Origin: Psammoneis japonica
Lineage: Eukaryota
Direction of reading: 5' to 3'
NCBI GenBank assembly: GCA_008632985.1
Contig: QPGO01000015.1
Location: 311,998-375,997, forward strand
DNA length: 64,000 bases
Below are positions 39,861 through 59,920 of the stretch, piece after piece (position 1 is the stretch's first letter; every line of letters begins with the position of its first letter). The notes below the pieces were generated by a model, which saw only the letters and a program-made list of their open reading frames with translations, searched no databases and was not told where the DNA came from. Both the position numbers and the translations under genes were made by a program.

Positions 39861-40419
39861 TGGGCGAACATTCGGTCGGCCACGCGCGCACCGCGCGCTC
39901 AGTTTGCTCGAAATTCGTGGCTACGAAAAACCTACGTTGATTTTACTACCACGAGATTCTCGCCAGAGCGAGAAATCCGTTGGGCCGTCCGCGACTTGGC
40001 TCACAATTTCCAAATTCAGCCGTTTTGTTGCTGGTCGATTGTTTTTCTTTGTTGGCTTCCAAGCGGTGAGTGTTGGTCTTGTGCAGTTCCATTCTGATTG
40101 TTGTTGCGTTCGATTTCCTCATCATGCGTCTCGTGTGTCACTTCTGTTTGTGGCAACGTTGAGAGACGCTCTGGCAGGTGTCAAACGACAAATCAAAGCT
40201 CGGATTTACCGGTGGTGTCGAGTTTGAAATCGACTTGAAAAACCGCTGTCCTTTCCGTCTGGCGAGAGGCAAGAATTTCTTTGTGTCGCTGTTGCATTTG
40301 TCCGTTCTCCTCTTTGTGGAAGTCTCCCCATCTCTGTCTCTCTCTGACAAACATGCTTTGTTTTCGTCTTTCCCGCAAGTGAAGCTTGAAGGTTGTCTCG
40401 CAGGCCATTTGAATCAAGT

Positions 40420-43400
40420 GTGGCGACATTCACGGCACCGTCGTCATCGGATGAGGACTCACCATGGGAGGATTCACCATCAACAAATGCCCTCTGTGAA
40501 GAGCGCACTCGGGATTCGCACAATGGAAAGTCCAAACGGAGGAAGGGCAAACGAGACAATGACCAGAATTGGGATAAAAGGCGGAAGCTGTCTGTTGAAG
40601 CGAAGCCATCAAATGAAAAGATGCCATCTCCCTGGCGCCATTTTGCCAACAACATTCCTTTGCCCGACTCGATGTCACCCCACACTCAAGACCGTCAAAG
40701 CCGTGCTGCTGCCACAAATGGGACAAGCGAATCGCATGCTGTCAAGCGAGTGCCATCTTCAGGTGCAGTGTCGGTAAAACGAACAAGTGAGTTTGCCGCT
40801 GGAAAGCCACAAGTTTTGAATGGAAGCGCCAAAGCTGGCGGCTTCCCAGAAGAATCTTCCGTGAAGAAGCGCCAACGAGGTCCAGGTGAGATCGTGACTC
40901 GCTTTGTTTGTTTCCTGCATGATGATGATTGTCGTCATGAAACTCATTCTTGTCAATTTCATCTCATTTGTTGAATGTGGGCACAGATGGAGCTTCCAAT
41001 GCTGCAGCCAGTGGTGGGGTTGACGTGGAGGCACCCGCCACTGTGGCAAAGGGTGCAACACTTGCTGTCGGTGGATCTCCTGTGCCATCTAAAAGGAGGA
41101 GGGGCAAGAGAGATGAGGATCCGAGTCGCCAGCACGACAAGGAACAGCTGGCTAAGAAACAAAGGATCTGCAACGACAAGCTGACGAACGAGCCGCAGCC
41201 TCGTAAAGGATCACTTTTAGCGGCATTCATGAGGAATAAAAAGAGAAAGGAACTGTTTGCATCTAAGCAGGGCAACCATCAAAACAATCGTGATGTGAAT
41301 GCAGGAAATGCACAAGGCGCTGCCACCAGCAAGAAGAAGAGTCCACGTGGTGCTGGCAAAGCCAAGACACCTGACAGCAAACAGAAGTGGCAATGGAGCC
41401 CTTGGGAAGGACATTGCAGGATCACTTCCGATGGTCGCCGTGAATGCCAAGCCCCCGACTTAGCCGTGAGAACAATCAAAGCTGTTGGTGCTCGCAAGAA
41501 GACGACCATGTCTTTTGGCGCAACACTGACTGACACTGGATCTCAAAAACTCAGCAGTGGCGCTCATTTGAAACGGTCTGGCACCCTGTCACCACAAGCA
41601 ACTGCTGCCCGTGATGCGGACTGTCAAGGATTGCATCAGAACATGGCTTCTGAGAAAACAAGTGAGCTTCGCGCTGCTGCTGCTACAGCTGGTGCAGCAA
41701 AGCCGCCGATTCCCACAGGACAGGAAGCTGTTGCTCCAAACGAGAAGGGGGTCCTTTGCGATGGTGCGAATCGTCCGCGTGTCCACTGCGCTCGTTCCGG
41801 CAACCCCGTCGCCGCTGCTGTGAGCACTTCTGCCGCAAGCAAGCCTGAGTCTAGAGTGCAAATAAAAGCCAGAGTCAAGAAGAAGAAACCACATTGTGCA
41901 CTCAATCCCCTTCCGAGCATTCCTGAAGAGTGCAATGTAATTGATGGTGCGACTGCCAAGAAGAACACAAGTCCTAGTGGGGTGGACCAAGCCAAGACAT
42001 CTGTGAGCAATTGTGAATTCGAAATGAGTCGTTCGCAAAGAAATGCGGTTCCAGCTCCTCCACTTGTCCCAACCGGTAAAGCTGCAGCTCCCAAGAAACA
42101 GAGAACTTTGCAATGTGGTGGTGAACGGCGCGGTCGTTCCGAGAACGAGAACACTGCCACCAATGAAGACACACATGTTGCTGCCCAAGCCTCACCTTCA
42201 GCTGCAAATGGAACTCCAAAAATGGACGGTCTGTCGAAAGAGCACACCTTGAACATCACAGGCAGGAAAATGGTTCGGTTTGTTTCGCTGTGCCTTGTTC
42301 TTGACGAGGAATTTATTCTCACCACTTTCACATCTCGTTCGTTTCGTATGGACGCACGCTCTGCCCGTGTTGTTGTCTTGGACGCACCCACTGTTACGAG
42401 TCAACTTGGGAAGATCCAAGCCAGGATGCCTGATGTAAGTTTGAAATCGGGACCAACTGAGCACACGGGGAAACAAAAGGCTGCTTCTCCGGATGCATCC
42501 GTTTCTGCCATGGATTTGGAAATGCCGAATTTCAAGCGTGGAGATGATTGTCACAAGACCACAATGAGATTTGATGAAATGGATTCATTCCCCATGCAAG
42601 AGCCTGACAAAGAAGCAAACCAAGAAGACGATGAAAATCCCACGCCCAAAGTTGCAGAACCTGTTGTTGCTGCGTCATCAATCCAAATGGGCAATTCTTC
42701 CGGCGGATTGGCGCACGCTGCCAATGCAGGAAGTGAAACCGGTGGCTTGCCAAACGAGCCCTCTCCCAGAAAACGCAAACGAACTGCAGGTGGGACAGTT
42801 GCCCACGTTTTGCTTGTTGCTTCTGTTGTCTGCTGTCAACATTGATGCGACCCCCTTCTCATCGGTGTCATCTCACTCGTTGAACACAGACTCTGAAAAT
42901 GCATCTTTTGGCAATGATGGAGAATGTGAATCTGATGCCTTGGGTGACTTTCCTTTGGGATCTTCACCTGTTGCTGCCGCTGGCATCCTGTCCAATGACT
43001 CATTTGGCGCTCCCACCGCTTCGTCTAAAGAATCAAGCTGCAACCGAATTTCAGGCAAGAAGATGATGATTCCCTTTTCGTTGCTGCCTGTGTGATTTCA
43101 TTGTTGTTGACACTACCTCTTGCCGGCATCATCTCATTTCATTGAATGCAGACACAGAAAATAGATCTTCTGGCGAGGTTGAGAGGCAGCTTGATGCTTG
43201 CGACTCTGTTGAAGAAGAGGAAGAAGCAGCCAAGGCACCCATGCTTCCCACGACAGCCGGTGACCGTGAAGCTGGTGGGTGGCGTGGCTGTCCCATTCAA
43301 GGAGCATCGGATGGGCTAGGCCTGGCTTCGAATGCAACCGTCAATGCGACTGAGACCAATGGGTCAACGGATCCAACAAGCAAATCCACTTCCACTTGCT

Positions 43401-44350
43401 CGAATCATTCAGTTTCTACCATGTCATCTCGTTTGCTGAACAGAGACAGAGACTACAATGGATCTTCTGGCGAGGGTGACTTGCAGCTCACCCTTTTGAC
43501 TCTGATGAAGAAGAGGAAGCAGAAGAAACCAATGCCGGTGCACCCACGCGTTTCATTGCCGCCGGTGGCTGTGGAGGTGCTGGTGACTTGGGTGGCTCTG
43601 TCATTGGGGGGGGTGCCTGATGCCATGACAGAAGATGCCGAAGCAGCTGTGAGTGAAAGCGACGATTTGGACAGCCTAGATTTAGGGGCTCCACCTGCTG
43701 CTGCGACCGGGAACTCTGAGCAAGCTGTAGAAAAGGCTGCCAAACCTTCGGAAAAAGGACATCGTGTCAAGAGATGGAAAAGTGGTACAGGCGCTAGGTT
43801 GATGACTCAAGCAGAGGCTTCAAAAACCGGATTGAGCTTCGACAAAGGGCTTGCACCGGCAGGCTATTGCATTCCGGACACGCTTCGTCTTATCTTCCTT
43901 AACATGGTTCACAACAAAAACGTGAGAAGGGGATTAAAGATGTCCAAAGCGGCGATTCGAAAGGAATTAGGCCAATGGGTAGCGTCCGAGAAATACGTCC
44001 CTTTTTGTGCGAGCAAAGGATTTGAGGCGCAACTGTTGTGCCGTGAAGAATCTCGAAGTAAAATGGCGTTGCTTCTGAAAGAAGAAGGCGTGTGTCTTGT
44101 CATCGTGGATTGCACAGACAGGGTCAAAAACGTGATGGCCAAGCATGCAGTGGCATATTTTGCGAAGCATGGTGTCCTCGTAGACACTGAGCCTTGCACT
44201 CACTTCGTCAGGCTTGAAGAGAAGGATCGAGGGACTCTTAAGCGCCGAAACAAGACGTCCATCAAGAAAGCAAATCGCATCTTCAAGAAATTATTTGACG
44301 GCGAAGAAAACAAAATATTCGAAATATACCAGATTTCAAGGAAAGTGTAA
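40420..44350 (+). pseudogene. Unknown multi-exon gene (low-complexity N-terminal region, globular C-terminal about 200 aa), TpA-eroded over its 5' three quarters
   Basis: Long ORFs 40393..40974, 40950..42845 and 43142..44350, separated by four pyrimidine-rich intron-like segments. The 631-aa ORF contains no Tyr. Confidence 0.5.
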
Positions 44351-44469
44351 GAAACGGGTAGTCAGGTTTTTCATAATCAGTTGTATAGAGCGCAATAAAA
44401 CCATTTTGTAAACCACTGCATAAAATTGTAAGGAGAGACTTCAGACAGTGGCATTCTAGACGCGGTGAC

Positions 44470-47400
44470 AGCCACCAGCCCATGAGGGCTTTACGACCAA
44501 TTCAGAACACATCAGTGGCCAATCCTTTGGCAAAATGGCAGACAAGCTGTGCAGCAGAGCTGACAGGCTCAATCTTGATCTCCAAAGCCTCAACCCCAGT
44601 GCAAAACCAGTGGCATGGAATGCCGATGGGCTTGGTTCATGGGGACAATTTAGGCATGCAAGCAAGCTGGGGGCAAGCAGCATTGTCTTCATGCACAACA
44701 GATGCTGGCAGGTTGGCAGCATTGATGGGTGAGGAATCGGTGCTGTCCTTGGCCTGCAGGAAGGCCTCGGAGTGGGCAGTTGCCTTGTTGTGAGCATCCG
44801 GTTGTGCAAAGACGTGTGTGTTAATTTCCTTCAAGATCTTGCAAAGGGGGGTGAGATCGCACATTGCTTGGGAGAGTGCGACATGCTCGGCTTCCATCCC
44901 AGAAAGTGCCGCCAGGGTCTGCAGCTTGGACACCCAGATGATGGGACATCTGCCACAATGAACAACACAACTGGTGTGTGACTTGACAGAAGTGTGGTTT
45001 TGTCCATCTTCAATGCCAAAGAGTCCTGCAAAATCAGCAACAACATGACAATCAAGCCAATGATCTGCAGTGGGTGCTCGGATGAGACCCTTGTCAGCAG
45101 TGTCCTTCAAGTGCCAAAGAATGTGCTTGATTTCAACAGCATGGGAGGCCTTGGGAGCAAAGGAGAACTGAGCAACTTGGTGGGTGGCACAGGCAATGTC
45201 CAGGTGGCTGTTGGATGCCAGATGAGTCAACATGCCGACCATGGGCCGACAGTTGCCACAAGGTTCATCGAATGATGGGCCTTCAGAACCACTGCCAGCA
45301 GGTGCAGGAAGTGTGGGAGCAGGAGCTCTGTTGCAGTTTTCTGTCTGGGCAGCATGCAGCACTTTCTCAATTGGGCCAGGTTGGGTTGGCAGAAAGCAGC
45401 CATCCTTGAGTTTCTGGATCTTCTTGATGCCAAAAAAGTTGCCAACTTTGCCTGCATCATGCAGGTTGAATGCATGGCATTGCTCATCATTGGAAACACC
45501 CAATTTGGCAATCTCAGCTTCAAGCTCTACAGATGACACTCCGGTGAACAAATCATTGTCAACACATGCCATGCACAACATGCCCTTCTTGAAACAAATG
45601 CAAGGGTCAACAGCAGACTGAATCCATCCTTGTTCAATCAATCCATGGTGCAGCTTTTCACAGAAGCACTTGGGAGACTGGCAGAGTCCATGCAGGTCTT
45701 TCAACAATTTTGGTGCCAAGTCAGCACCTGATTTCTGCTGAAAACCCTCAGGAGGCTCCACACAGACTTTCTCCTTGACATCAGCTTGGAAAAAGGTGGT
45801 GACACAGTCAATTTGATGAGTGGTCCAACCTTCTTTGAGCACCATTGTGAGGAGAAGCCAAGTTGATGACCATTGCATGACGCACAGGTCTTAAAACAAT
45901 CAACACCTTGCACATCTGCAAATCACCATAAACACAACACTGGGCTTTGTGCTTCAAGGGTGCACCATCAGAAAGTCTTTTAAGCCAGAAAGCCCATGTG
46001 CCAGGCAATGCATTCATGTCATCAGTCCTTGGCACCATTTCCCATGCACGATGGTGGAGCAGCACATTTGTCTCAATCTTCATGGACCCATTTGTTGGCC
46101 CTGTGACTGCACACAGCTTCATGCGAGGGATGGCACATCAGGGTCCTTGTGTTTCTTTGCAGTTGCACAAACCCTTTGCGCAAACCCTGGGATCATCAAA
46201 GTTTCAGGTCTGCAAATCAATGCAGGTGTCCAGAGCAGCAAGATGCACCAACTGAGCTGCAGTCCCAAGCAACTCGTCTTTTGAGTTTACTGGAGCAAAG
46301 AAGACTTTGTCCATGAACCTTTCAGACAGCAACTGACCCTTGTTTGATCAACTTGAACAGCACAGTGGAGGAGCTAACTCTGGAGAAGTGGCAGGAGGAG
46401 ATTCCGGTGTTGTTGGCATTGTTGGAGGAGCAGGTTCAGGCAGAGTGATGGCAGGTGGTGGTTTTAACTCTGGTGGCAGTTCTGCAGGAGCACAGGCAGA
46501 GGACTGGAGGGTCATCAGGTGCATTGGGAACTTCAATGTGGACATCAGGTGTGTCCGGTGGAGGCAGTTTGAAAGCAGTCCATGCCTCTGAGCATGAGTG
46601 GATTGTCTGGGATCTGCAGGGGGGCGGCAAGTCATTGATGACAGAAGTGGTTTCAGGGTCACAGAATCACAGAAGTCAAACCCGTGATGGTGGATGCTTG
46701 GAGGTGAGTTCTCACAGGTGTCATTAAAAGATGCTGGGTTGCTTGCTTCATGCACAAGGTCATCCAACATGCTGTCTGACAGTCCTTCCATGTGACTTGA
46801 TGTGGCATCATGAAACACAACTGGATTCTTGATCTCTGATGCAGTGTGCAGGCTGAAAACAACTCAAGAGCTGGCAGTTCCAAGTTAAAAGAGGACAGAG
46901 CATTGGAGAGCTTGTGGAAATTGTCAGTGTCTTTGGGGTCAACCGTCTTGACCAAGATTGGAGCTGGTTTGGCCATGGCAGTTTCCCTCTTGGCCATTGG
47001 AGCAGGAGTGAAAGATGCAGAAGCAATGACCACAGGAGGGCTGCCCACAGCATTGTCAACAGGAGCACACCACATGCCACAATGGACAAGTTCTTCATTG
47101 GCATCAGAGTCCTTGTCCATTGGTGGAGCCGTTGTTTGCTCAGGAGGACCAAATGGGACACCCACAGAAGGATCATTTGCAGCAGAGAGATTTGCTGAAG
47201 CAGTGGCACTGGAGGTGGGTGAAAATTTGCTGGTGTGTTCAGCACTTGAATGGCCTTGTCACATGCCCATCTCACTGGTTTCCTTGTTGATGCACTTGTC
47301 ACACAATTTCCAGAGCATGCCTTTGTCATCAGTGAGGGTGGGTTCCTTGTTCACGAAATGCCAGGTGGGCTTGGAAGGTTTTGGTTTTGGAGATGGTGAG

Positions 47401-48850
47401 TCCCTGTCTGTCTTCTTTGTGTTGTTCTTGGACTCATCTGCTTTCACCCTCTGCACTGCCACGTGCTCTTTCTCACATGCAGAACACACATGCTTGGTGC
47501 ATCCAACCACACCACATCCCTGCAGCAATGCTTGTCCTTGATGGAAGTGTTGCTCGACTTGGGGAGTTTAGCTGTTGAGGCAGGCCAGTCTTCATCACTG
47601 ATGAGCTTGTCATGGGTCATGGCAATCCAGCCAATGTGGCCAACAGGCCCTGAAATTGTGCAGTCAGAGTGGTTTGGCACTTTAGCCAGGTTGCAGAGAC
47701 AACACTTTTGTGTTCCATCTTCTTAACATCATCCATCTTCAAGAATGCTTGACAATTAAAGAACTTGGATGAAGTCTTGGATGCTTTGGTTAAAATGGCA
47801 GAACCTGTGTCAACCAGCAGCACACAGTCCATCTTCACAATCTTGGCCAGAGGAAGAGCTTTGGCCACAAGCTCAGTGCAATCCTTGCCAGGGTGGAACT
47901 TGAGCAACAGTGCCTTGAGCTTCTCCTTGGTGGACTTGACATCAACAAGAGCACTTGCATTGCAAGTGTCCAGAGCCATCACAAACAACACTGACCCTGG
48001 AAGATCCTTGAAGTCCTTGATGTGGTTGAACTTGACTTTGATCTTCTTGCAGGACGTTTCCGTGATTTGAGACTTGACTTGGAGTTGAGAGAGACCAACA
48101 TTGTCCTTCTTGTAATTGTCACAGCCTTTGTCACCTGAAGCAGCATTGCAAGACTTGCACTCCTTCTCAAGAAGGTTGCTGACAGAGATGGCATGAAGGG
48201 AGTCTAACAGACAAACAACCTTGCTGACAGACGTCCTCTTTCAACGGCAGAAAATTTCTTGCCCGTGCAACTGACAAGGTCTTGGATGGTTTTGACAAAG
48301 TCTTTCTTGTCCAGTTTGGTGCTTGGACCGTTGGACAGCTTGATTTGACTGATGAACTTTGAGACAGTTGCTGAAGCAAGTTGTTCACAAAGGGATTGCT
48401 TGATGGACTTGGCAGCCTTTGGATGGCAATGCTGAGAGTGTCATCAAGAAGAGACCCACCAAGGCACATGCCACAAGAGGGATGCAATCCACCATGGATG
48501 GGGGTTGGGATGGGTGGATGTGCATCGGATGCTTGCATGGCTGCAAAAGCCTCGGCAAACTTCTTGAATGTTTCCAGATCCTTTCTGGGAGCAGTGGCAT
48601 CAGAATCAGACATGATGCTGGATGAGGATTTGACACAAAAGATCAACTGCAAGGACAGGATTGCAGCACAGAAGATCACCGCAGGATGGGATGTCATCAC
48701 AATGCAGTGCAGAGGATGACAATCACAATTGACTGGAGATTGCATTTTGACCTGACGGTTTTGTGTGTCACTCTGGTTGCTGTTGCCAGAAGACTCAATG
48801 GACATTTCTTCCAGAAGCAGAGATTGATGACCGGAAGCATCATCCATGAA
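44470..48850 (-). mobile_element. Degenerate Ty1/Copia (diatom CoDi-like) retrotransposon: gag about 48613-47240, RT-RNase H about 46200-44475; protease and integrase not seen
   Basis: 'LPGTWAF.LKRLSDG...KHKAQCCV.GD', 'VCVEPPEGF', 'LHGLCQSP', 'DPCI...CVDN', 'DCHVVADFAGL', 'PIIWVSKLQT..ALS.MEAEH.ALS', 'HEDN' and terminal 'LMGW'. Gag 'PIHGG...GG' and 'WKLCDKC'. Confidence 0.9.
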
Positions 48851-50299
48851 TCACACTTGGCATTTGACTCGCGACTCTGCAGGCTGGAACTTTGTTGTGT
48901 TTGATCTTTGTTGTTTCAAGAAACACAGCCACAGTTGTCTTCAAATGTCCTCAGGCTGTCCTTGTGACATTTTTGTGTTTGACAAACATGTGTTGACTCA
49001 TCTGAACAAGAGACAAAATGCCATGGGGGCACTCCTGGTGTTGAGAAAAAGCACATGGGCTCTGTGCAACCACCATGCAGGAGCACACCATGGACAAAAT
49101 AAAAAAATGTTGCTGTGGTTCACACAAACAGTGGTTCAGTGGAAGGGATGTTTAAAATGCACCCTGAACAGAACTCAGATGCAACACAGAAACTGAGATG
49201 AGGGAAGAGGCATCTCCTCCTGGCCTGCTGTGACACACTCAATGAGCGCACCCTCACCATCATCTGACAGCAGCAACTTAAGAATTCTCTGAACATGAGC
49301 TCCTCTGAGCTGTCACTTTTGGTGACCTCTGTCCTTTGCACAGCTTTGTTGGGCTTGCCAAGCTCTCCATCTGGCTGTTGCTGATGCCTCCTTTTGCAGC
49401 ACTCCAGATTTCTTCCATGGGCCCTCTCATGACACTCCCAGCCAGCCACAAGCTTTTGTCAGCTCCTCACTCTCACCAGCTGCTGGGAACTGTGCCCTGC
49501 TCTCTGCCCACAGCTTCACTCACATGCTGCTGCAAGTGGGGCAAGCTGTCTCTTTGGAAGCTTTTTGCTGCATCACCTGTCAAACCTGGTTCAGAGGATG
49601 GACTTGCAAGTTTGAGGGCAGACTCATCATTCCATCACACACCACAAAACAGTTTGCAGCTTTGAAACAGAGCAAAAGCAGCTGCTGCTTGACAAAGCCA
49701 CAGCCTGGAAGCAAGGTGTGGAACAACAAATGGTGTGGCATGTTGATGAGCTGTTGCAGGGAGGAGGGCAGTCCTCATTGCCATCTGCTGGTCCAAAAAC
49801 CATGTCAGCAACAACCATGTTTAACTCATGGAAGAGCCTCTGTTTTAACAGTTGTCAGCTTGACACCATTTTGGACATCTCACATTTCTCTTGTGGAAGA
49901 ACTCAAGGTCAATCAAATCTTCTGTGTTTGGAGCCATGAAAGCTGGCGTGGTCTCTGTGAACAATTTGTTGGAGTCAAAGTCACACACCATGTTTGCACA
50001 GCTTGTTTGTGTGATTTCAAATGTGCATGTTGCTTGTCCTTGCAAAAGCTCATCAGCCTTGTTTCTCAAAGTTTTGCAGCAGCTCACTTGCTTGCAACTG
50101 GCAATGGGCTGCATCTGCTGGTGACAACTCAGCGTTCATGACCTTGTCACCCCCAAAGCTGCACTGACTGAAGATCTTGAACAGATTTGATTGATTGTGG
50201 ACAAAGCTCTCTCTTTGTGGCTGCTCCTGAAGCTTCTTCAATTTGTCCAAACCATGCCAATCTTTAGAAAGCTGTGATCAAGGCAATCTCAGATGGTTG

Positions 50300-50760
50300 T
50301 GACACCACAACAGTCCATGTTGAGACTTTTTTCTCTTTTTCCGTCCTGATGCATTTCCAATCTTTTGCATGTTGGGATGATGTGTTTGTGATGCTCCATG
50401 CATGAAGTTGTCTTGTGCCTCAAGTTCTGCACCTCCACCGGCTGCTGCTGCAGGCACCACCACCAAGGGCTGTTTGCTCTGCAGCTTTGTTGCCTGGAAG
50501 AAGCTTGGCATGACCTTCCTCCCACTTGTCCTTTAGATGCATCATCTCAAACATGGTCCAGGTGCTGCTTTCAAGCAGCTGGTGCACAGGCTCCTGATGC
50601 TTCTCCAGACAAAGGGCAAGAATGTTTTACCCTGCCACAACATGGTTTGCACATTGCACAGGAACAACAGGTGCTCTTCACATGCACCTGCAGAAAAGTG
50701 CTGAAAACTCAGTTCAAGCACAGGACTGTCAGCATTGGCTGGAGGGTCCACGTTAGAGTC
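50300..50760 (-). mobile_element. Possible Ty3/Gypsy gag N-terminal fragment
   Basis: 'DPPANADSPVLELSFQHFSAGACEEHLLFLCNVQTMLWQG' resembles the diatom Gypsy gag pattern 'DP..ADSP.YEL....F..G..EE.L.F'; recognised from memory. Confidence 0.45.
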
Positions 50761-53700
50761 ATTTAGGAGTGTTAGTTTTTCAAACTACATACTTGTCTGC
50801 TGCTGCACCTGAGCTCAAATGTCAAACTCACCTTTTGACAGTGCCTTCTCTTCTCCAGATGTTGCAAAGGAATTGGCAGCTCACTCCACTTCTTCATGAT
50901 TGGTCAGTTCATCAACTGTGGTGTTGAAACCTGGCACACTTGCATGAATGTGTGCAAAAGAAGAGAGTTGGCAGACAAGAATCCTGCAGCTTCAGAGGTC
51001 AATTCATGCCAAAAAAACACCAAGAAAAGACAAGGATTCTGTGATGAAGGTGAGTGTTGAGTGAGTGCTTGTCAATTGTTGATCAGTTGATGCCTGCTGG
51101 TGATGATGAGCCACCTGAGTTCAAACTGCCAGCCAAGAAGCAGTGGAAAAGCAGCCCAAGTGCATCTCATTTCCAGTTGCAACAACACAAGTTGTGTGCA
51201 CCTGGCATGGTCAGGGGGTGGTGTCCCTGACCACCATGGCCCAAAGCAGTGAAATCATGCTTCACAAGAAGCTGCAAAGTGGTTTGATGTGACAAGCTGC
51301 TTTGGTGCCACCTTGGGGTCAGACAAAAGAAAATTCAAAGAAAGGACAATGGACTCTGCAGTGGGCACACATTTGGGCTGTGAACAGAAAAAGTGGAATC
51401 GCAAATGTGCGGCAAGGACAGCTCACACGAAAATGCATTTGAGTGTGCAGCAAAAGCAAGAACTGTCAGCAGCTGGAGTCAGTGTGTCAGTTGGTCCCAG
51501 GCCCTCAAATTGCTCAAACTGTGGAACTGGGGTGTCAGACACACAAGAAGCCAGCTGTGGCCATGGCAACTGCATGTCTGTGAGATGAGTGAGAAGAGTC
51601 ATCTCATGGACTTGATCTGCTGGTCCAAGATGTGGATCTCTGTGCTCTTGGTGTGCCAACACCCCCCATCCTGTTCCCTGATCAAAGCATGTTGCAGACT
51701 CCAAAGAAAAAGCAATGACATGAAGGCTGAACTTGCAAGTGTTCAAACTAAAAAAATCAGCAAGCTCATGGGTGCTGCTGTTCTTGAGCAAATCTTGAGA
51801 ATGTTCCAACAGCTGTGCTTGCAGCCAGCAGCCTTGATGTTCATGTTTGGCCGTTGCCTGGGAAGTCCACTGCCAATGTCAAGGCACATGTGTCATTTTG
51901 CCCTGCCATGACACAGCGGGAGCCAGCCTGCACTGCACAGACACAATGACTGGGTGTGCACTTCACACACTGGCAAAAAAGTGCAGAACATTCAGCTTGT
52001 GCATTGGGCTGTCAGCATCAGCTCTGGCAAGTTCCTGAGCTCACATGTCAAGCACTCTCTTTTTGACAATGCCTTCTTCTCCAGACATTTCAGCAGAGTT
52101 CATGTGGCTCAACCTGCTCATTCATGATTGGTTGATTTGTTGTTGGCATGGCTGACATCACAACCTTGGGCACTTGTGGGAGCAACACCACTGTGCCTGG
52201 TGCACTGTCAGGTGATGACATGGGGAAACAGCAGAGGGTGCCAAAGCTGCATTTTGTGAAAGTTGTTGTGAGGCTGGTTTGTCTCTAAAAAATGGAGTGG
52301 TGTGAGCAGGAAATGTGGAAATTCTCTTGTTGATTTGCACCATGGGCTGCAATGAAGCTGTGTTGATTTGGCCCACAGCTGGCTTCATTCAGAATTTGCA
52401 CAAGTTTTGAAAAAAACCAGATGCATCATCACATGTGCTTGCCAAATAAATTTCAACAATGAGCCAACTTTTGTCCATTTGCAAAACAACAAAGAGTCCA
52501 CTGATGATGATGATCATGGCCATGCATCATGTTCAGCTTGGCAACTCTGGACATGTCATCTGCAGCCGGTCAAATGCCAGCTGTTGGCATTTCCTGGGAA
52601 GTTGTGCCTTGTCCAACCACAATCAGTGCATTTTTGGCAAAAAACAGTGGTTTGCTTGTTGAATGTGACAGCTGTGGTAAATTCAAAAATTGGCATTTTG
52701 AATTTGAAGGTTGATCAGCACAGTTTGCATGAAGGTGTTGCAGCCCTGGTGGGCAGTGGATGAGTTCCAAGTGTTTGGGGGAACTCAAGAGAGGCATTCA
52801 AAACAACATGAACAAAGCATGAGCTGTTTAAAAATTTGCCAAGAGCTGATTGTTCATCCTTGAATCAGCTGCATTTAAGTTTCTTGGCTCTGACATTGTC
52901 TGCATGTCATCATGTGTGCACATGTGCATGCTGTGCCTGCATTGCTGTGCCTGCATGTGTCATCATCTTTGTGTCCTCAATGGCCTGAGTTGTTGATCCA
53001 CAGGCCCCCCTGTGCTGCCATGATGCATGCTTGCACAGTGCAGCAAACTAAAAGGAGAGAAATGATTGGTCCCAGCAACTCTGCCATTTGCATGTCCTTT
53101 CTACAAATCATTCCACGTGCACAAGCAAAGCACAAAACTCAGCATGCTGCATGTGGCTGGTGTTGACTGCACACACTGACCACAACAGCTGAAAACTGGA
53201 GCATGCTCTGGAGTGGTCAACAAGAAACAACAATTTGTTCCCTGTCCCATGAGACATGCTGCTTGGCTCCCTTTTTTGGGAGATGACAAACCCAATGTGC
53301 AAGCACACCTTTTCGGAGAGCAATGATCTCACCACCCAAGAGGATTGGCAGAGCTGAGATTTCAAGGATGACCATGAAGAAATTTGGGAGGGCAAGCCAT
53401 TTGGTGGAACCATTTGGTCTTGACAAAAGAGAGCCACCCATCTTTCTCACTTTTGGTGTGCACAGGACCAGCATGCAGCACAGTCACTGACTTTCCTGTG
53501 CATGCCAAAGAAACAACACCATTGCAGGCATGAGCTGAGGAAGGGTGGCTTTTAAATGATGACAAATGATGGCAAGTGCAAAGGAGGAAACCTGTTGCAG
53601 CATTGCTTGGTTGCAGAGAAGGAAGACAAGTTGCTTGACAATGTTTTTTTTTTCATTTTTGAGCATCTTGAGCACATCAAGTGAAGAGGTGCCTTTGGCC

Positions 53701-54149
53701 AAGAAAGGGATGGAGGAGGAGAGGAAAGAGTTCAGAGCCTGCATGGCTGCAAAGGAGGGGGACTCAAGAGCTCAGAGACTGCCTGGCTGTGAGGGAGAAA
53801 AACATGAAGCTGTCTGCAATCTTGAAGCCACTGAGCTGCAGATCCATGTCATCCCTGTTCAAAGATGCTGTGCAAGCAGCAGCAATGAAAGGGACCAAGA
53901 ATGCCTGTTTGTCACAGATTTTCATGCAAAAAGGCATGATCAGACTGCCCAACATGCTGCTCCACACTTGTGCCTTGGACCCAGCCTTGGCTGGCTGTGT
54001 TTTGGGCACCATGATTGACAAAGCATCTTTTTCACAAATCCATCTGTTGTGCCAAAGAAAGGCATTTACACTGTACAAAGCTGCAAGGACTGCAGGCCAA
54101 CATCAGCTGGTGGAAGCAAGGGCAGTGCACATCCCCATTGAGGATCCTT

Positions 54150-56900
54150 GCCTGATCCAAAGACATGATGTGCCAGTTGGTTTGTGGCAAACTGTGCTGC
54201 ACCACCCCACTGAGACCTTTTTGGTGCTCGGTTGTTGTTGACGTTGTGTGTTTCCCACCAACCTCATGTGCACTCCAGGAGTTGACTGGTGTCATGGAGC
54301 AGGTGCCAGCACACATTGACTTCTGACAACCCAACAAACTCATCTGTGGCACATTGCAACTGCTGATTTTTCTTGTGGTTGTTGAAGAGTGGGAGTCCCC
54401 TTGGGTTTTGCAATGCTGTTCTTAACGCAGATTCTTGTTTTTTCCCTGAATCATCCCCCCAATCCTCACCTGGGTGGACAACTCTCTTGCCTGGTGCTAA
54501 AGGCTGTTGTCTAAATTCCCATGCATTGTTTGTCATGCAGTTTCATCACCTTTGGCACCCATTCCTCTGTCCAACTTGATGAGTGCCCCCCTCCCCACAC
54601 CCATCCAGCAGTTGACCCCATCTCTCAGCTCCTGCCCTCACAGGCTCTTGGTCTGCAGCACCCAGTTGCTGGGGTCTAGGTTGCCTTGGATGGCATCATT
54701 CTCAGGGGGCTGGGTGGCCTTGCCTGCAGGGGGGGGTTGATTGGGCTCACCCTGTCCTTGCAATGCTGCGGTGGGTTCATTCTGACATGTTGAGTTTGCC
54801 AGTTGGACTTGAACTTGAAGGTTCCTGATGGTGGCTTCCATCTCAGCTGTCTGTGTTTGCATCTGTTCTGGTTCATCTGCAGTTAAGGTGGGTGTGCTTT
54901 GCGTTGATTGAAGCTGGTGAATTAAGTTGATGAGGCCTGGTTCCAATGGGCAATTTGAGCCCATTGTGGCCACAGATTTGTTGGTGACATCCGGGCAGAA
55001 ATCACATTGGCTTCAACACATCTTGGGGGCTGGTTGTTCAGGCAGCTTGGGTTTGTTGCTTGCCTCAGGCTTGGATCTGTCTGCGAAGATTGTGAATTAA
55101 AGATCCTTGTCTCCTTCAAGCAACTCAGCTGGGGTGAGGTCTTCCTCAGTTGCTGCTGCTGCGCCATTGGAAGGATCAAAGATGAGAGAGTCTGCCAGCT
55201 TGTTGGCAGCAGTCATGAAGTTCAGATGGTGTTGCTCATCTGAGTGGCGGTGCTTTAAGAGTGGCAGGAGACTGGTGATTCTTCCTCTTGCTTTGTTGGA
55301 CAGCTTGGGCAAAAAGTTGAATTTTGTGCATCCGGCATTTTCTTGTGCTTGTTGATGACTGGGAAAAGTTTCTCTCCTGGGTGCTTGTTGGAATCCATCT
55401 GCGTTGTTGCCTCACACAAGGATTTTCTGTTTGGCTGACTTTCAGATTTGCAGCCAAGTTCAAAGATCTGGTCCATTGATTCCTGGCAGCAGTCATTGCT
55501 TCTCATCATCCTGACAAAAGTGTCTTGCCCAGCTCGCAGCATCTGTGCACCCCATTTTGACCAGTCATTGAAGACGTTTCTACAGCTTGGAATGAAATGG
55601 CAGCATTGGCCTGAAGGGAATCTATCTTTTGCTTTTGAGGAGCAAACATGCTGCAGAGCCTTCCTGCCTTGGTGTTCCTTTTTGGAATTGGCTTCAGCTT
55701 TGGCTTCGAAAGCACAGACTTTGTTTGTCTTCATGTCCCGCCTCTGGCCTGGTTCCTGCACATTGACATTTCTCCATCTAAAGCCTGCCTCCTGGCCCAC
55801 GGCTTCCTGGAAAACAACCTTGTGGGCTTCACGGTTGTGGTCCTCAAAAGAAAAAAGCAGCCAACCCAGCTTGGAGAGCTCCTGTGGAAGTGGCACTGAG
55901 CCAGGGTACAGTCTGACATCGTTGTCCTGGAAGAAGTGGTCAACCTCCTCCATGATGGTGTTGTGGGACTTGTTGCTTCTAATGAAGTTGTTGTGAAAAG
56001 CCTCCACCTCCTTTTGGGTGACACAGCACTTGTGAAAGTGCTCCCTCATCTGTGCATCATTCTTGGGTGGCTCTTGTGGTTTTGTCAGTGGCTTCTTGTT
56101 CGAGCCCTCTCTTCATGGGCATGGCATGTGTGATGTGTCCACTTCCTGGAGCAGTTCTCTGCCAGGACATCCTGATGGCATTTTCTAGCCTCGCTCCTGT
56201 CCTTCTTGGCAATGAACTTGATGATGAGCATGCACCTGTGTCAGTGGGTCCTGGGTGCAGCCTGAACCGCCAGCATGAGTTGCTGAACCATCTCCTGGGG
56301 GGTGGGTTTGAGGTGGAGGTTTCTGTGTTCCAAGAGCTCTCATTGTCCTTTGGAGCACCAGTCACTGGAGCAGCATCAGAGTTGTTTCCAGATGGGCCAT
56401 GGTCTTCTTGAGAGTTTTCATTTTGGGCCAGGGTGGAATTGTTTTGTTCGGGGTTGTCCTCCTCACCCTCATTGTGATTGGATTGGTTCACTCTTGGGTC
56501 AGATGCCAGCAGGAAGCAGGGGTTGTATCCTGGATCACCAGGGAACAGCTGTGAGCTGTGGCCTCGGGTTCCAATGGAGCGGGTGGGCATTGTGGCTTGT
56601 GATGTCATAAATCCCCTCTGCCTCCATGTCTGTGGTGATGTCCTGAATGGTTGGATCAACCATGACGAGTTTGAAACTGCCTGGCTTGCTTTTGAGGAGA
56701 TTTCTGAGTGAGATTGTAGCTGTTGGTGGCAGCTGATGAGGACAGTGATTCCATGTCATCATCTTGGTTGGTTTGAGTTTGTGAAATCGTCATTCCATCC
56801 CCCCCTGCATCATCAATGGACTGTTTGGATTGTTCAACTCCAATCGGTGTCCAAGCAACCACCCAATTGTCCATCAGCCCAATCAGATGGGAGTCAGTTC
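54150..56900 (-). mobile_element. Degenerate non-LTR retrotransposon (Ambal-like): ORF1 about 56900-54900 plus the start of the ORF2 AP-endonuclease about 54540-54150; RT not seen
   Basis: APE N-terminus 'WGDD..KKQESALR.ALQNPRGLP...KN...GLSEVNVCWH'. ORF1 'LGWLLFS...FRWRNV...SS...FPSG...FIP...LR..Q..F...KLF'. Confidence 0.7.
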
Positions 56901-57139
56901 TCGATTTTTTTTGTCCTTGTTTGTTTGAAGACCCTTCAGTTGCCGGAATTTCACAGTCTCTGACCATGGTGCTGCACACATTTCCCCATCCTGGTCGCAG
57001 TTGGTCCTGTGGCACTGCTGGCATTGATTCCATGTGTCAGATTTGAGTGGCTGTGACTTCCCTGCACACCTCTGCACAAGGGATGCACCACAGCATGTTT
57101 GTCCACAGTTTCTGCCAGTTCACAATGTCACAGATCTTA

Positions 57140-57967
57140 GAGAAGTGCAATGGGCTGCATCACATCACTGCAGCCACCATGTCCCTCTCCAGCTTCCATG
57201 CTGCACCCCGTCAAGGCTGTTTGGATTGCACCAAACATGTCTGTGGATTCTTGTGCAAGATTCAACATGGTGCCCTGCAATTGCATGCCAAGGAACACGA
57301 CTGTTTGGACCTTTCTAAGCCTGTGCATGACTGGGCTCAAACCACACATGGTGATGCGGAGCAACTGATTCCCAAAGACATGCGCAGCCCTCTTGGCAAC
57401 TTTGTCACCATGACCCATTGTGTTGATGCAAGCTTGCTCCATTGCATGCTCACTGGATGCTCTGTCACAGGCATCATTTTTCATTTCCTCAACAAGTTTC
57501 CAGCTGATTGGTTCTTCAAGAAACAAGCTGCAGTTGAGACTGCAACTCATGGATCTGAGTTGTTTGTTGCTGCTGGGATGTGTGTTGAACAACAGATCAT
57601 TGATCTGTGCATCACATTGCATCACCTTGTTGTCCCAATCCACAACACATGTTGCATGTTTGGGGACAACAAGTCAGTTGTGGACAGTGCCACCATCCCC
57701 CACTCCAAGTTACACAAGCGACACACCGCCCTCTTGTTCCATCATGTGCGTGAGGCAATTGCCTCTGGTTTCCTCAAGTTCGACTTCCTTGAAGGTTCCT
57801 GCAACCCCGCTGACATCCTCAGCAAACACTGGGGTTGCTCCCAGGGTTGGAACCTCCTCCATCCTCTCATGTTTTGGAGCTTTGATCCTGAGGCCTTTGG
57901 TCAATCTGACTTTGAATCTGTTGCTGCTGTGGACTCCTCAAGCAAACTGAGGAGTGACAGGATTTGA
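57140..57967 (+). mobile_element. Degenerate Ty1/Copia (CoDi-like, second family): RT C-terminus and RNase H, then a PPT-like GAGGAG and probable LTR start TG at 57955
   Basis: 'MSLSSFHAAPRQG.LD', 'THCVDASLLHCMLTGCSVTGI', 'KKQAAVETATHGSE', 'MFGDNKSVVDSATIPHSKLHKRH.AL.FHHVREAIA' and 'NPADILSKHWG'. Confidence 0.92.
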
Positions 57968-58227
57968 ACAAGATTTTAGTTTGTTGCACAAAAATGTGTG
58001 TGCTTTCAGTTCTGCACATGACACAAATGCAGTTTGCTTTTGAGCCACTTGGCTCATGAGAATTGTGACAGTGGCACCCACATCATGACACCCCAGTCTT
58101 TGGGCTCCCACAACACATTGTCTGCATGAGCACTCATCTGCTGTTTAGACAGCAGCAAGGAGTCATTGTTTTCTTCCACCCAGTCATCTTGTTTTCTGTG
58201 AACTCACATTCATGCTCACAAGGACTG

Positions 58228-58575
58228 CAACAGAGGCAACACTTTTACCCTGAAGAGCAAAGGACTTGATTGAACAGCAAAGAAAAGAGGTGGCATTGAA
58301 GACTGACTGGTGTGGATGGAAGCAGTCATCCAGAGTCATGACAAGCTGAGAGTCAGTGGCTTCATGCAGAAACAATGCCAGATCTTGCCCAGAAAAGCCA
58401 ACAGGCACAGCAAATGAATGATCAATGGACACTGGAGGATGACTCATGCTTGCGCTAGAAAGGGATCCAACAACAGAGGCAGTGCTTTCACCCTGAAGAG
58501 TGAGGGAAAAAGAAGCAGTGTTGAAGAGAACCCACTGGCATGGACAGAAGCAGTCTAGAGATGTGACATGCAGAT
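58228..58575. repeat. Diverged direct repeat of about 110 bp (about 58228-58345 and 58470-58575)
   Basis: Shared 'caacagaggca..ctt.accctgaagag', 'ttgaaga..actgg..tgga..gaagcagtc'. Confidence 0.7.
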
Positions 58576-58639
58576 TGTCAACAGTTTCTTCTGAGTCCTG
58601 CAGAACTTGAGCTGGAACCTGTGCAAAAAGGTTTCTGAG

Positions 58640-59920
58640 ATGACAGAAATTTGAGAGAAACAACAACCAGTGTGTGAGCCACAAGGCTTTGACACACACA
58701 ATTTTCTGCTGAAGAATGTTGCTTGTCATGCTGCAGTTGGCAAATGTGAACAAAATGGGCTTGTTGGAGCCAACATGACACCATCTGAGAAGGGCAACAT
58801 CAGTGCAAGAAGTTGTGCACAAACCCGCATGGAGACCAGAATGTGCAGCTGACATCAAAAAGTGCAATTGCAAAAAGAACAGCTGCATGTTTGCCAAATG
58901 CACTGCACTCCAGTTCACCCTTCACCTGTGTGCTTTGTGGGGGGGGGGCACACAACAACAGCCAGGATGCCATCAAGACAAAATTGTTGTGCTGCCTGGA
59001 GGTGTTGACAATGCCTCCACCAGCTGAGTGGTGCATGAGCAGCTGCACTGCCCTGGCAAGACATGTGCAGAAACATCCACTGCCCATCACTTCCACTGGC
59101 CTGGCATCATGAGTGCTGCAGTGCATTCTGCATGTGTCAAGTGCAAACAATGCCAGGAGATGAAATGCCAGACACAGCATTGCAAGAAGCTGTCAGAAGT
59201 CCAAAAAAACAGCCAAAAGAATCCTGCAGGAGACCTTGTGTGTGGATGTGACATGGGGTCCCACCAAATTGAGTGATTTGGAAAAGACACTCTGCAACAG
59301 TGAACAGCAACTGTGACTGCCCAGGCACCAGGAAGATTCAAGTGCCAAGATTGTGGAAGTGTCTGCCAAACATGATGCAGGTGTCACAGAGTCACCAGGG
59401 CAAATGTCATGAAGCAAACCTCCCTGGCCATGTGCAGGTGCATCCAAATCCACAGGCAAGCACTTCTGCAAAAATGCACACAACAGACACTTGGAAATGT
59501 GGTGTGCTCATTTTCAGTGTGGGACATGGAGTTGGACAAGGGGAAGGGCATCCTTTCAGCCATGGCTTCTGTCATGCATGCTGCATCACATGCCACTGCA
59601 TGGGCAAATCCCAAACAATTGGCCTTTGACATGATGCAGCTCTTCTGTCCATTGCCCTTTGTGCCAAGTGGTGGCACACCTGATGCAGAAAGCTGAAGCT
59701 GATGCACTCAAATGACAAATGCAAAAGCATGAAACAAAAGGAGTGCCAACACACCACAGGGCAGTTGGCACTTGTTGTCAAACAAGGGCAAAAAGACAAA
59801 ACACAGAACTGGTTGTCATGCAGGTCCTGCCAGTGTTGTCAGCATGAGTGACAGCAACACTTTGCATCCACAAGATGGTGTGCTGACACAGACATGTGCA
59901 ATCTGTGGCAGATTGTGCAC
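58640..59920 (+). mobile_element. Degenerate Ty3/Gypsy RNase H end and integrase
   Basis: Zn-binding region 'HEQLHCPGKTCAETSTAHHFHWPG...CKQCQ'. Core end 'QQTLGNVVCSF...GILSAMASVMHAASHAT..ANPKQLAF'. GPY/F-like 'HAGPASVV'. Confidence 0.8.

Follow-up and report, generated by a model that had tools for sequence, protein, structure and literature searches.

The first 3.7 kb of a nuclear gene of the diatom Psammoneis japonica are strongly depleted of TA dinucleotides. We consider it likely that a regionally confined TpA→TpG/CpA transition hypermutation caused this depletion, and that the same process, together with CpG decay, eroded the copia-type retroelement remnants next to the gene. The 64-kb stretch of DNA analyzed here is referred to as the window.

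TA and CpG loss in the domain

The segment 40050–43720 is diatom nuclear DNA. By count, it contains 28 TA (observed/expected ratio (o/e) 0.13), close to the roughly 30 sites estimated by eye in the original prediction, and 173 CG (o/e 0.72), along with o/e ratios of 1.58 for TG and 1.29 for CA. Pooled host sequence (36.6 kb) had o/e ratios of 0.57 for TA and 0.99 for CG, and 293 host windows of 3751 bp ranged from 0.44 to 0.66 for TA and from 0.87 to 1.11 for CG; the segment lies below every one of them (0/293 with TA < 0.44 or CG < 0.87). The comparator 43750–44460 reached 0.52 for TA and 1.03 for CG. Even the low-complexity host exon 18937–19500 (TA 0.39, CG 1.19) is richer in TA, and the segment thus falls outside the range of such exons. 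Judged by the positions of TA, dense TA ends at 39947 and is followed by a gap until 40207, and TA density resumes at 43677, which places the TA-poor, CpG-retaining, and probably TpA→TpG/CpA-hypermutated domain at 39950..43680 (borders approximate, no strand assigned). Between 39950 and 43700, 28 TA were counted versus 142 expected (Poisson P = 1e-31) and 180 CG versus 220 expected (Poisson P = 0.003), with o/e ratios of 1.55 for TG and 1.30 for CA. Per dinucleotide step, TA (−0.030) and CG (−0.011) are decreased relative to the host and both products, TG (+0.028) and CA (+0.010), are increased. Total YpR is nearly unchanged (0.2331 in the domain versus 0.2365 in the host), and GC content is 0.511 versus 0.486. 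Along the domain, TA o/e per 500 bp was, in order, 0.03, 0.06, 0.28, 0.19, 0.16, 0.00, and 0.20.

CpG is abundant in the domain, as had been predicted with two CpG-bearing strings as examples, both located exactly at 42123 and 41766; it is not untouched, however, since CG lies ~27% under the host inside the same borders. Overall, ~80% of TA were lost versus ~18–27% of CG. Within the first kilobase (40001–41000), TA o/e dropped to 0.03–0.06 with CG still at 0.84–0.95, in agreement with the claim that TpA loss is not a by-product of CpG deamination. The reverse order, i.e., CG-poor sequence with normal TA, occurred in no 500-bp window of the 64 kb, and all TE-type 500-bp windows had TA ≤ CG. Measured in log terms, the same DNA has gone ~3–8 times further in losing TA than in losing CpG. 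These data support a TA-directed mutation process that is distinct from ordinary CpG decay and outpaces it. The proposal that TpA loss acts earlier, faster, or independently therefore holds as far as a distinct process running ahead is concerned, but not for full independence. Because the CpG deficit has the same borders as the domain (35 CG versus 34.2 simulated in the adjoining tail of the gene), the data fit a single targeting signal acting at two rates as well as they fit two separate processes. Methyl-CpG decay is the probable cause of the missing CG, and the domain could equally be a cellular gene kept in a TA-only steady state as an early stage of the TE-like state.

The gene carrying the domain

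Within a diatom nuclear gene, the domain forms the promoter-proximal 3.7 kb and comprises the 5′ leader, short phase-1 introns, and low-complexity N-terminal exons. As read from the sequence, the gene, with all its features on the + strand, would contain three or four phase-1 introns of ~100 nt and a Lys/Arg-rich low-complexity N-terminal region of ~1000 residues. A possible first intron (GT..AG) lies in the 5′ leader (40067..40403; 1 TA and 19 CG in 337 nt). The following exon (40404..40885, in the frame of ORF 40390..40974) belongs to the low-complexity Lys/Arg-rich N-terminal region; its 165 codons include no Tyr, and 2 TA were present versus 14.8 in synonymous resampling. Putative intron 1 (40886..40986; GT-AG, phase 1, frame-keeping) has 0 TA in 101 nt. 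The large exon (40987..42789) contains the ORF 40950..42845, which spans 631 aa plus a stop and is indeed free of Tyr. It comprises 601 open codons with 0 stops in the coding frame versus 7–32 in the remaining five frames, and no homologue was found among proteins of 330–1052 aa. Putative intron 2 (42790..42889; GT-AG, phase 1) has 0 TA in 100 nt; a motif at its 3′ end recurs at 40957 and 43422 (repeat family D2). The short exon (42890..43054, in the frame of ORF 42568..43095) has no Tyr and 1 TA in the 57 codons scored (42883–43053), and putative intron 3 (43055..43151; GC-AG, phase 1) has 1 TA in 97 nt. The last exon with the stop codon (43152..44350; ORF 43070..44350) is TA-poor over its first ~530 bp (6 TA versus 17.5 simulated in 43151–43720) and normal over the remainder, where both TA (18 versus 27.2 simulated in 43721–44347) and CG are within host ratios. 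A TA-rich 3′ flank (44351..44460; 9 TA in 110 nt), probably the 3′ UTR, separates the gene from an eroded block.

In its final 630 bp, where TA is normal, the gene encodes a conserved C-terminal domain (43790..44347), which is not hypermutated and resembles papain-fold cysteine peptidases according to homologues and an AF2 model. We identified 14 distant homologues, and a Pfam search assigned no family to this domain. Across 11 sequences, H142 and D155 do not vary and C50 hardly does, and in a 4-sequence set all three are invariant; in the order Cys, His, Asp, they are candidate catalytic residues of a papain-fold cysteine peptidase (clan CA-like). The AF2 model (pLDDT 82.4, pTM 0.82) has a papain-like alpha+beta fold. 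VIA-align matched it to the C39 peptidase domain of PCAT1 (Z 11.5, rmsd 2.9 over 130 residues) and to staphopain C (Z 11.2), and the 17 chains at Z ≥ 8 were cysteine peptidases nearly throughout; the best E-value with Foldseek was 4.9e-3.

Eroded retroelement blocks, a second DNA sample, and competing explanations

Two blocks of the window are fully eroded (no strand assigned). In the retroelement-type block 44460..64000, TA and CG are each at ~0.1 of expectation, and the second block, 7000..9790, comprises a TA-free run (6995–9788) with CG o/e ratios of 0.00–0.43 per 500 bp. Pooled, both blocks reach o/e ratios of 0.06 for TA, 0.11 for CG, 1.80 for TG, and 1.96 for CA, and lie beyond both cut-offs (TA rho and CA+TG rho) of a preprint on Bigelowiella natans (Mettrop et al., bioRxiv 10.64898/2026.01.13.699255). 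The four 1-kb windows of 40001–44000 are under the TA cut-off as well (rho 0.05–0.31); their CA+TG rho of 1.28–1.47 (host 0.91–1.34) is below the value of 1.52, a species-specific cut-off set on the B. natans genome and not on this diatom. Within the first block, a degenerate Ty1/copia reverse transcriptase ORF (44640..45890, − strand) matched Pfam RVT_2 (PF07727; E = 9.6e-17; 61.8 bits, cut-off 31.6) and had 125 relatives at E ≤ 1e-10 (top identity 49%). The target here is mobile DNA, unlike the cellular-looking gene of the domain. Compared to 30 relatives, the 10 conserved Tyr columns now hold five His, four Cys, and one Leu, and the 10 conserved Arg columns hold four His, two Trp, two Gln, and two Cys. 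The direction of change follows from these replacements, i.e., TA and CG were lost to TG/CA. RTAY accounts for 31% of the TA sites in the host, 4% (1/28) in the domain, and 4% (4/96) in the eroded blocks, and YTAR for 18%, 39%, and 69%, respectively (host versus domain: chi-square p = 9e-4). The hypermutation thus prefers RTAY (5′ purine, 3′ pyrimidine) and spares YTAR, and this preference is common to the domain and the eroded blocks.

For comparison, we used run X1, a second DNA sample whose contigs may be alleles, another strain, or paralogues. Listed, as unpolarized differences, were 40 of 300 places. The 23 rows inside the domain correspond to 17 events: six adjacent CA↔TG doubles (12 rows), four TA↔TG/CA, five CG↔TG/CA, and two others. 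The 5.9-kb host flank accounts for the other 17 rows, none of which is a double change (Fisher p = 0.018 versus the domain rows), and all six adjacent doubles among the listed rows fall inside the domain. At these six positions, the window reads CA three times and TG three times, and double hits on one CpG were expected 0.017 times. The sequences indicate that the doubles are independent hits on one ancestral TA.

An early stage of TE-type silencing, i.e., young foreign, mobile, or newly heterochromatic DNA with CpG loss still to follow, is an unlikely alternative explanation of the domain. The domain is not an insertion, because a long variable N-terminus joined to a conserved C-terminal domain is an architecture common to distant, cellular-looking relatives, and the frame stays open across three frame-preserving introns. 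A spread from the retroelements is contradicted by the unaffected 0.7-kb tail and the 3′ flank between the domain and the eroded block. Early silencing would fit the partial CpG decrease within the same borders, the uniform order of TA and CG in TE-type windows, the intermediate residual YTAR share, and the recent activity suggested by the CA↔TG doubles. The Pfam search revealed no TE or viral family in the domain, and no second copy was found elsewhere in the 64-kb window, the sole internal repeat being 184 nt long with 69% identity.

The TA loss of the domain is mutational and not compositional, with both strands hit and introns and exons affected alike. We see little chance that composition or selection alone, in the form of a Tyr-free low-complexity protein, codon bias, or UpA avoidance in mRNA, made the domain TA-poor. 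This reading is largely refuted by the non-coding parts, since the leader and the putative introns (752 nt) are as TA-free as the exons (2 TA versus 28.5 expected; P = 2e-10). The deficit also remains with the amino-acid sequence fixed: in synonymous resampling with host codon usage (200 draws), ORF2, which corresponds to the large exon 40987..42789, had 17 TA versus 54.7 ± 6.3 (lowest draw 37) and 87 CG versus 127 ± 8.5, and host ORFs had TA at 0.66–0.86 and CG at 0.87–1.02 of simulated values. TA per 1000 codons at the three codon positions amounted to 0/8.3/19.9 in the domain versus 18.9/36.8/38.8 in the host. Low-complexity acidic host exons are rather TA-low themselves (o/e 0.39 in 18937–19500; rho 0.39–0.43 in 1-kb windows of 19001–22000), Tyr makes up merely 0.8% in two host ORFs, and the 601-codon open frame argues for coding constraint; yet the TA-low host exons lack the TG/CA gain (CA+TG rho 0.91–1.05 versus 1.28–1.47 in the domain), and the shift towards YTAR is the same as in the eroded blocks. 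Moreover, homologues are not devoid of Tyr, as the N-terminal parts of five family relatives contain 35 Tyr in 2309 aa (range 1.06–2.5%) versus 1 in 1014 aa in the domain. His and Cys are not elevated in the domain exons (2.0% each in ORF2), and a change of Tyr to His/Cys is therefore not demonstrable there.

Very little credence can be given to a transcription-coupled or programmed diversification, in which a mutator at the 5′ end of the gene, comparable to AID, would vary a nuclear peptidase in its disordered N-terminal region and spare its catalytic domain. Such a process would match a domain that begins in the putative leader or first exon, extends over ~3.7 kb, ends before the conserved domain, and keeps its reading frame open, as well as the many indels between samples (27 nt absent at 39822, 8 nt extra at 40004, 12 nt extra at 41672, and 42630–42916 skipped (285 nt)). 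However, the TA deficit shows no gradient away from the 5′ end (o/e 0.03 in the first 500 bp, 0.28 in the third, and 0.20 in the last), dead retroelements bear the same signature, which speaks more for defence or silencing than for a dedicated diversifying machinery, and this is a single example. An artefact, i.e., an assembly or base-calling error or a chimeric paralogue join behind both the apparent domain and the double differences, is hardly credible: summed X1 contig depth is higher over the domain (222–338) than on the long flank contig (58), so that more than one copy or allele is possible, and the doubles are known from 40 of the 300 places, but the independent X1 contigs cover 30/30 bins, agree with the eroded blocks (8 differing letters in 4577 bases) and the flank (2 in 2707), and, listed differences aside, reproduce the TA-poor domain, and errors would not give Tyr→His/Cys at conserved columns with the frame open.

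Known systems and implications

Under the favored explanation, TpA hypermutation, transitions to TpG or CpA would have affected the 5′ 3.7 kb of the gene within sharp borders, and the same process combined with CpG→TpG/CpA decay would have led to the complete erosion of the neighboring copia-type remnants. Selection may have sharpened the right border, which lies ~100 bp ahead of the conserved peptidase domain; by arithmetic from the resampling rates, hypermutation combined with strict purifying selection would leave ~11 TA in the tail versus 18 seen, a model that is excluded only marginally. Opposite products (TG versus CA) at six dinucleotides in the second DNA sample suggest that the process is recent or still active. 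By analogy to the proposal for B. natans, its chemistry may be the deamination of DNA adenines in T-A context, catalyzed by an ADAT/TadA-like enzyme. Targeting would rely on local chromatin, transcription, or an RNA-guided signal and not on sequence, and CpG decay would be a separate, slower result of cytosine methylation.

Our literature search found no report on TpA hypermutation in diatoms; the closest was the 2026 B. natans preprint. In B. natans, integrated NCLDV and virophage DNA is reported to undergo TpA-specific hypermutation; of 231 new mutations that mutation-accumulation lines gained in two viral insertions, 230 were A>G/T>C, all of them at TpA (Mettrop et al., bioRxiv 10.64898/2026.01.13.699255). 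Both systems share the TpA target with TpG/CpA products on either strand, a regional, sharply bounded, and GC-increasing effect, and TpA-poor, CpA+TpG-rich clusters that include reverse-transcriptase genes. They differ in the organism (a chlorarachniophyte there, a diatom and thus a stramenopile here), in the target (viral DNA there, the 5′ part of a cellular-looking gene here, single-copy within the window and not visibly repeated), and in the evidence (measured new mutations there, composition and one two-sample comparison here). Furthermore, the eroded blocks described here also lack most CpG, which has no mention in the main text of the preprint, and the preference for RTAY over YTAR has no counterpart flank analysis in its accessible part.

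Other known processes resemble parts of the pattern. RIP in ascomycete fungi converts CpA to TpA, leaves DNA AT-rich and TpA-rich, and requires duplicated sequence. Regional, near-saturating transition hypermutation, the destruction of mobile elements, and a dinucleotide scar are features in common. However, TpA is destroyed here and GC increased (TA o/e 0.13; GC 0.511 versus 0.486), and the domain has no duplicate within the 64-kb window; neither a TpA gain nor AT enrichment is present. Diatom methylation is reported to occur mainly at CpG and to be concentrated on repeats (PMC5124317). Methyl-CpG decay would account for the loss of CG to TG/CA in the copia-type blocks (Arg→His/Cys/Gln/Trp), and CpG depletion with TpG/CpA gain is strong there (o/e 0.11) and weak in the domain (0.73). 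It cannot remove TpA, however, and the first kilobase of the domain is nearly TA-free at CpG ratios of 0.84–0.95. Among adenosine deaminases, whose A-to-I products read as A>G, ADAT2/3 and TadA edit tRNA A34, which always follows U33, the natural context of TadA is U-A-C, and ADARs favor a 5′ U and prefer a 3′ G on dsRNA. The 5′-U/T preference of all three fits the T-A target, and the U-A-C context of TadA fits the 3′-pyrimidine preference seen here, to which the 3′ G preference of ADAR is opposite. Moreover, these enzymes edit RNA, whereas the change here is fixed in genomic DNA including introns and leader. Somatic hypermutation by AID deaminates cytosine in WRC context in the immunoglobulin genes of vertebrate B cells; it likewise acts on a domain of a few kilobases from near the promoter and spares the downstream constant part, but the target here is TpA.

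In the literature searched, regional TpA→TpG/CpA hypermutation has one previous report, the 2026 preprint on a chlorarachniophyte, which concerns integrated viruses only. Added here are the same scar in a diatom; a stretch that has both substrates and in which the TA process is naturally separated from CpG decay; a constraint on the enzyme through the flanks, with RTAY lost first and YTAR last; and a target that resembles an ordinary cellular gene and in which two samples show signs of recent independent hits. If the process acts genome-wide, mutation-rate estimates, repeat annotation, and the statistics of codons and dinucleotides in diatoms would have to allow for TpA hypermutation, and 39950–43680 would offer a ready-made locus for assays aimed at identifying the mutator. 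More speculatively, diatoms might possess an active, RTAY-preferring TpA DNA hypermutation of adenine-deaminase type, independent of cytosine methylation, not limited to foreign or repeated DNA, and guided by chromatin or transcription, here on the 5′ 3.7 kb of a single-copy cellular gene, which together with that of Bigelowiella could be an old SAR-wide editing system. If this is true, TpA editing could reshape host proteins, here by removing Tyr from a 1000-residue region.

TA loss and CpG retention in one domain

Over 40050-43720, dinucleotide counts gave 28 TA (observed/expected ratio, o/e, 0.13) and 173 CG (o/e 0.72), with TG at 1.58 and CA at 1.29, in agreement with the original prediction that TA is rare and CpG abundant in this segment. 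The CpG-rich strings cited in its favor were located at 42123 and 41766, and the ORF at 40950..42845, at the position of the large exon (40987-42789), does encode 631 aa without Tyr. By comparison, o/e values were 0.52 for TA and 1.03 for CG in the next 0.7 kb (43750-44460), and 0.39 and 1.19 in a host low-complexity exon (18937-19500).

Three compositional states were found in the window. Pooled host DNA (36.6 kb) shows o/e values of 0.57 for TA, 0.99 for CG, 1.11 for TG, and 1.13 for CA. The corresponding values are 0.06, 0.11, 1.80, and 1.96 in the retroelement-type eroded blocks (7000-9790 and 44460-64000; 22.3 kb), two runs of which (2793 and 2354 bp) lack TA altogether, and 0.13, 0.73, 1.55, and 1.30 in the TA-poor domain (about 39950-43680). 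Across 293 host windows of domain length, the minima were 0.44 for TA and 0.87 for CG. The domain contains 28 TA versus 142 expected (P 1e-31) and 180 CG versus 220 expected (P 0.003). Both borders are sharp, with dense TA until 39947, gaps of 260-590 bp thereafter, and dense TA again from 43677, about 100 bp before the start of a conserved peptidase-like domain (43790-44347).

The conversion of TA to TG and CA in the domain is regional and independent of coding. In the 5' leader and inferred introns (752 nt), 2 TA were observed versus 28.5 expected (P 2e-10), and 38 CG versus 44. For coding DNA, the protein sequence was kept fixed and codons were drawn from host usage (200 draws). The large exon contains 17 TA versus 54.7 ± 6.3 after resampling (lowest draw 37), a ratio of 0.31 compared to 0.66-0.86 for host ORFs, and TA is lowered at all three codon positions. 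Total YpR is unchanged (0.2331 in the domain, 0.2365 in the host), and by mass balance the lost TA and CG are recovered as TG and CA; TA-low host exons (19-22 kb) lack a comparable TG/CA gain. A genome-wide neutral equilibrium was rejected, as the intergenic host DNA adjoining the domain is TA-dense, and so was GC-biased gene conversion, given that AA (1.34), AT (0.86), and TT (1.20) are not depleted.

CpG loss in the domain is partial and not proportional to TA loss. CpG is abundant, as predicted, but not untouched, lying about 27% below the host by o/e and about 18% by raw count. After resampling, observed/simulated CpG ratios were 0.63-0.77 in the domain, 0.87-1.02 in host ORFs, and 1.02 in the tail, i.e., the last 209 codons of the same gene (43721-44347). 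Arithmetic from counts and resampling places TA loss 3-8 times further than CG loss on a log scale, and CG loss with normal TA occurred in no 500-bp window. At 40001-41000, TA is 0.03-0.06 and CG 0.84-0.95. The proposal that TA loss is separate from CpG decay and faster held up, while full independence is unproven. Diatom cytosine methylation is described in PMC5124317 as mainly CpG and located on repeats, which would explain why the retroelement blocks have lost CpG; as a source of the TA loss, cytosine methylation cannot account for the data. That the domain is a transient en route to a TE-like state, the "snapshot" originally proposed, rather than a steady TA-only regime, is likewise unproven.

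Gene structure and the unaffected C-terminal domain

Four ORFs in three different frames can be joined through three introns of about 100 nt inferred from the sequence, all of phase 1 and frame-preserving: 40886-40986 and 42790-42889 (both GT-AG), and 43055-43151 (GC-AG). A 3'-end motif is common to all three. One motif recurs at 40957-40982, 42866-42891, 43130-43150, and 43422-43447, each time where an inferred intron ends and the next exon begins, except for the fourth copy (43422), which the last exon reads through. The motif copies and the all-phase-1 introns suggest gene growth via duplication of an intron-exon module. The large exon has no stop over 601 codons in frame and 7-32 stops in the other five frames, and therefore the coding region is real or was so very recently. 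Exons within the domain encode about 1000 low-complexity, Lys/Arg-rich residues with one Tyr in 1014 codons. No homologues of the N-terminal exons were found among proteins of 330-1052 aa; five relatives in the family have 35 Tyr among 2309 N-terminal residues (1.06-2.5%), in regions that are not alignable residue by residue.

The last 209 codons belong to a small family for which 14 distant relatives were found. Pfam assigns the relatives no family, and their N-termini are variable and of low complexity. In the alignment, H142 and D155 do not vary, and C50 varies hardly at all. The AF2 model (pLDDT 82.4) was compared to known structures by VIA-align, yielding Z 11.5 against the C39 peptidase of PCAT1, 11.2 against staphopain C, and Z ≥ 8 in 17 chains, nearly all of them cysteine peptidases; Foldseek alone was weak (best E 4.9e-3). 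We read the C-terminal domain as a putative papain-fold cysteine-peptidase domain. Long disordered N-termini occur among the relatives, one of which carries a Med26/TFIIS-type domain. In diatoms, the unnamed family may be a nuclear peptidase or a deubiquitinase-like enzyme. A pattern search of metagenome contigs with the smaller of two alignments returned 268 pattern stretches, none of them confirmed; the patterns contained this gene's own peptides.

The tail contains 18 TA versus 27.2 simulated and 35 CG versus 34.2, both inside host ratios, and the 110 nt 3' of the stop codon contain 9 TA. An unaffected 0.7 kb therefore lies between the domain and the downstream eroded block. The right border could also arise if hypermutation continued through the tail under strict selection on the conserved domain. 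With about 11 TA predicted for the tail and 18 seen, this model is only marginally excluded.

The internal repeat 43100-43320 versus 43395-43625 shows 75 mismatches in 216 columns (33 transitions, 42 transversions), only 10 of them of the YR<->YR type, and the units are too diverged to be informative. No convincing terminal or inverted repeats were found at the domain edges. The window is eukaryotic DNA: its intron-less PRP6 gene (15097-18000, minus strand) has its best named relatives among diatoms, namely Seminavis robusta (71% identity) and Cyclotella, Thalassiosira, and Skeletonema (66-69%), with no match above 74%.

Signature shared with retroelement blocks and differences in a second sample

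The adjoining eroded block contains a Ty1/copia reverse transcriptase ORF (44640-45890, minus strand; RVT_2, E 9.6e-17). Compared to 30 relatives, ten conserved Tyr columns are occupied by His (5), Cys (4), and Leu (1), and ten conserved Arg columns by His (4), Trp (2), Gln (2), and Cys (2). As judged from the aligned sequences, these replacements match exactly those predicted for TAY>CAY/TGY and CGN>CAN/TGN. The Tyr and Arg replacements thus establish the direction of change in that block, with both strands affected.

The domain and the retroelement blocks have a flank signature in common. TA preceded by a purine and followed by a pyrimidine (RTAY) makes up 31% of TA sites in the host, 4% (1/28) in the domain, and 4% (4/96) in the eroded blocks, and YTAR 18%, 39%, and 69%, respectively (host versus domain, chi-square p 9e-4). 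ATAT is missing from both the domain and the eroded blocks. TTAA is at host level in the eroded blocks (33 sites, ratio 1.02) and was found 0 times versus about 5 expected in the domain; its survival in the blocks reflects either resistance to the mutator or constant re-creation from TTGA/TCAA. GTAC is almost gone from the fully eroded blocks.

The 2.8-kb block between host genes (6995-9788) has no TA, a CG o/e of 0.00-0.43, borders that match the large downstream block in sharpness, and five long ORFs without a Pfam family. Pfam assigned no family to 26 ORFs of the eroded blocks. A second hypermutated element, sought via the composition of 120 copia relatives, was not found; none of these is Tyr-free (lowest 1.9%). 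Self-comparison of the window gave just one other repeat, a tandem pair of about 300 bp inside the eroded block (59985-60644, 71% identity).

Contigs from three runs of a second DNA sample were aligned onto 34000-53999, covering 30 of 30 bins (X1), 12 of 30 (X2), and none (X3). Long X1 contigs showed 2 differing letters in 2707 bases of host flank and 8 in 4577 bases of eroded block, and the contig spanning 39749-40366 showed 9 differing letters and 35 gap letters. Transitions predominate among X1 changes (A>G 64, T>C 61, C>T 45, G>A 43; transversions 41), which are unpolarised; the contigs may represent alleles, strains, or paralogues. Sequence context was assigned for 40 listed of 300 X1 difference places. 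Among those listed, 23 lie in the domain and comprise six adjacent CA<->TG double changes of two places each (40120/1, 40151/2, 40213/4, 40997/8, 41114/5, and 41324/5), four TA<->TG/CA, five CG<->TG/CA, and two others; the 17 in the 5.9-kb host flank comprise eight TA<->TG/CA, three CG<->CA, and six transversions. Double changes among the listed places thus number six in the domain versus none in the host flank (Fisher p 0.018). CA versus TG at one dinucleotide is what would result if an ancestral TA were hit twice independently, once per strand; for CpG, the five single differences lead to an expectation of 0.017 such double hits. Some of the erosion, at least, is therefore younger than the split of the two sequences.

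Indels also lie within the domain or at its edge: X1 lacks 27 nt at 39822, carries 8 additional nt at 40004 and an additional (GCT)4 at 41672, and one contig omits 285 nt, inferred intron 2 included (42630-42916). The N-terminal region is hypermutated and also structurally unstable. At 36668-38001, summed X1 contig depth is 469-621 versus 58 in the neighboring flank, and 7 of 11 differences among those listed are TA<->TG/CA, though TA o/e is normal. This segment may be a multi-copy element whose erosion has only just begun; Pfam assigned no family to nine ORFs of 36.6-40.2 kb.

A candidate mechanism and its relation to known systems

In the literature searched, the single description of TpA chemistry is a preprint by Mettrop et al. 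(bioRxiv 10.64898/2026.01.13.699255). It reports on mutation-accumulation lines of Bigelowiella natans, in which an integrated giant virus and a virophage acquired 231 new mutations; 230 of these were A>G/T>C, every one at TpA, and the rate was about 1000 times the genomic one. Genome-wide, 124 TpA-poor, CpA+TpG-rich clusters are described, and an ADAT2-like DNA adenine deaminase is proposed; neither "CpG" nor "diatom" occurs in the preprint text. TpA-directed hypermutation in diatoms was not found in the literature searched, in which few subscription journals are included. The domain resembles the B. natans system in target, products, strand symmetry, and regional confinement, but differs in lineage, in its cellular-looking target, in the co-located partial CpG decay, and, relative to the preprint's main text, in its RTAY preference. 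Fungal RIP offers a conceptual parallel; however, RIP creates TpA, whereas the process here destroys it.

The chemistry in the domain would be adenine deamination at T-A, directed by a signal from chromatin, transcription, or RNA, and the double differences in X1 suggest that the erosion is recent. In known tRNAs, A34 is always preceded by U33, and the natural context of TadA is U-A-C, which fits the 3'-pyrimidine preference seen here; the 3'-G preferred by ADAR does not. The domain is of interest because, within a single stretch of DNA, it sets the two kinds of decay apart, and because it adds diatoms and a cellular gene to the known range of TpA hypermutation.
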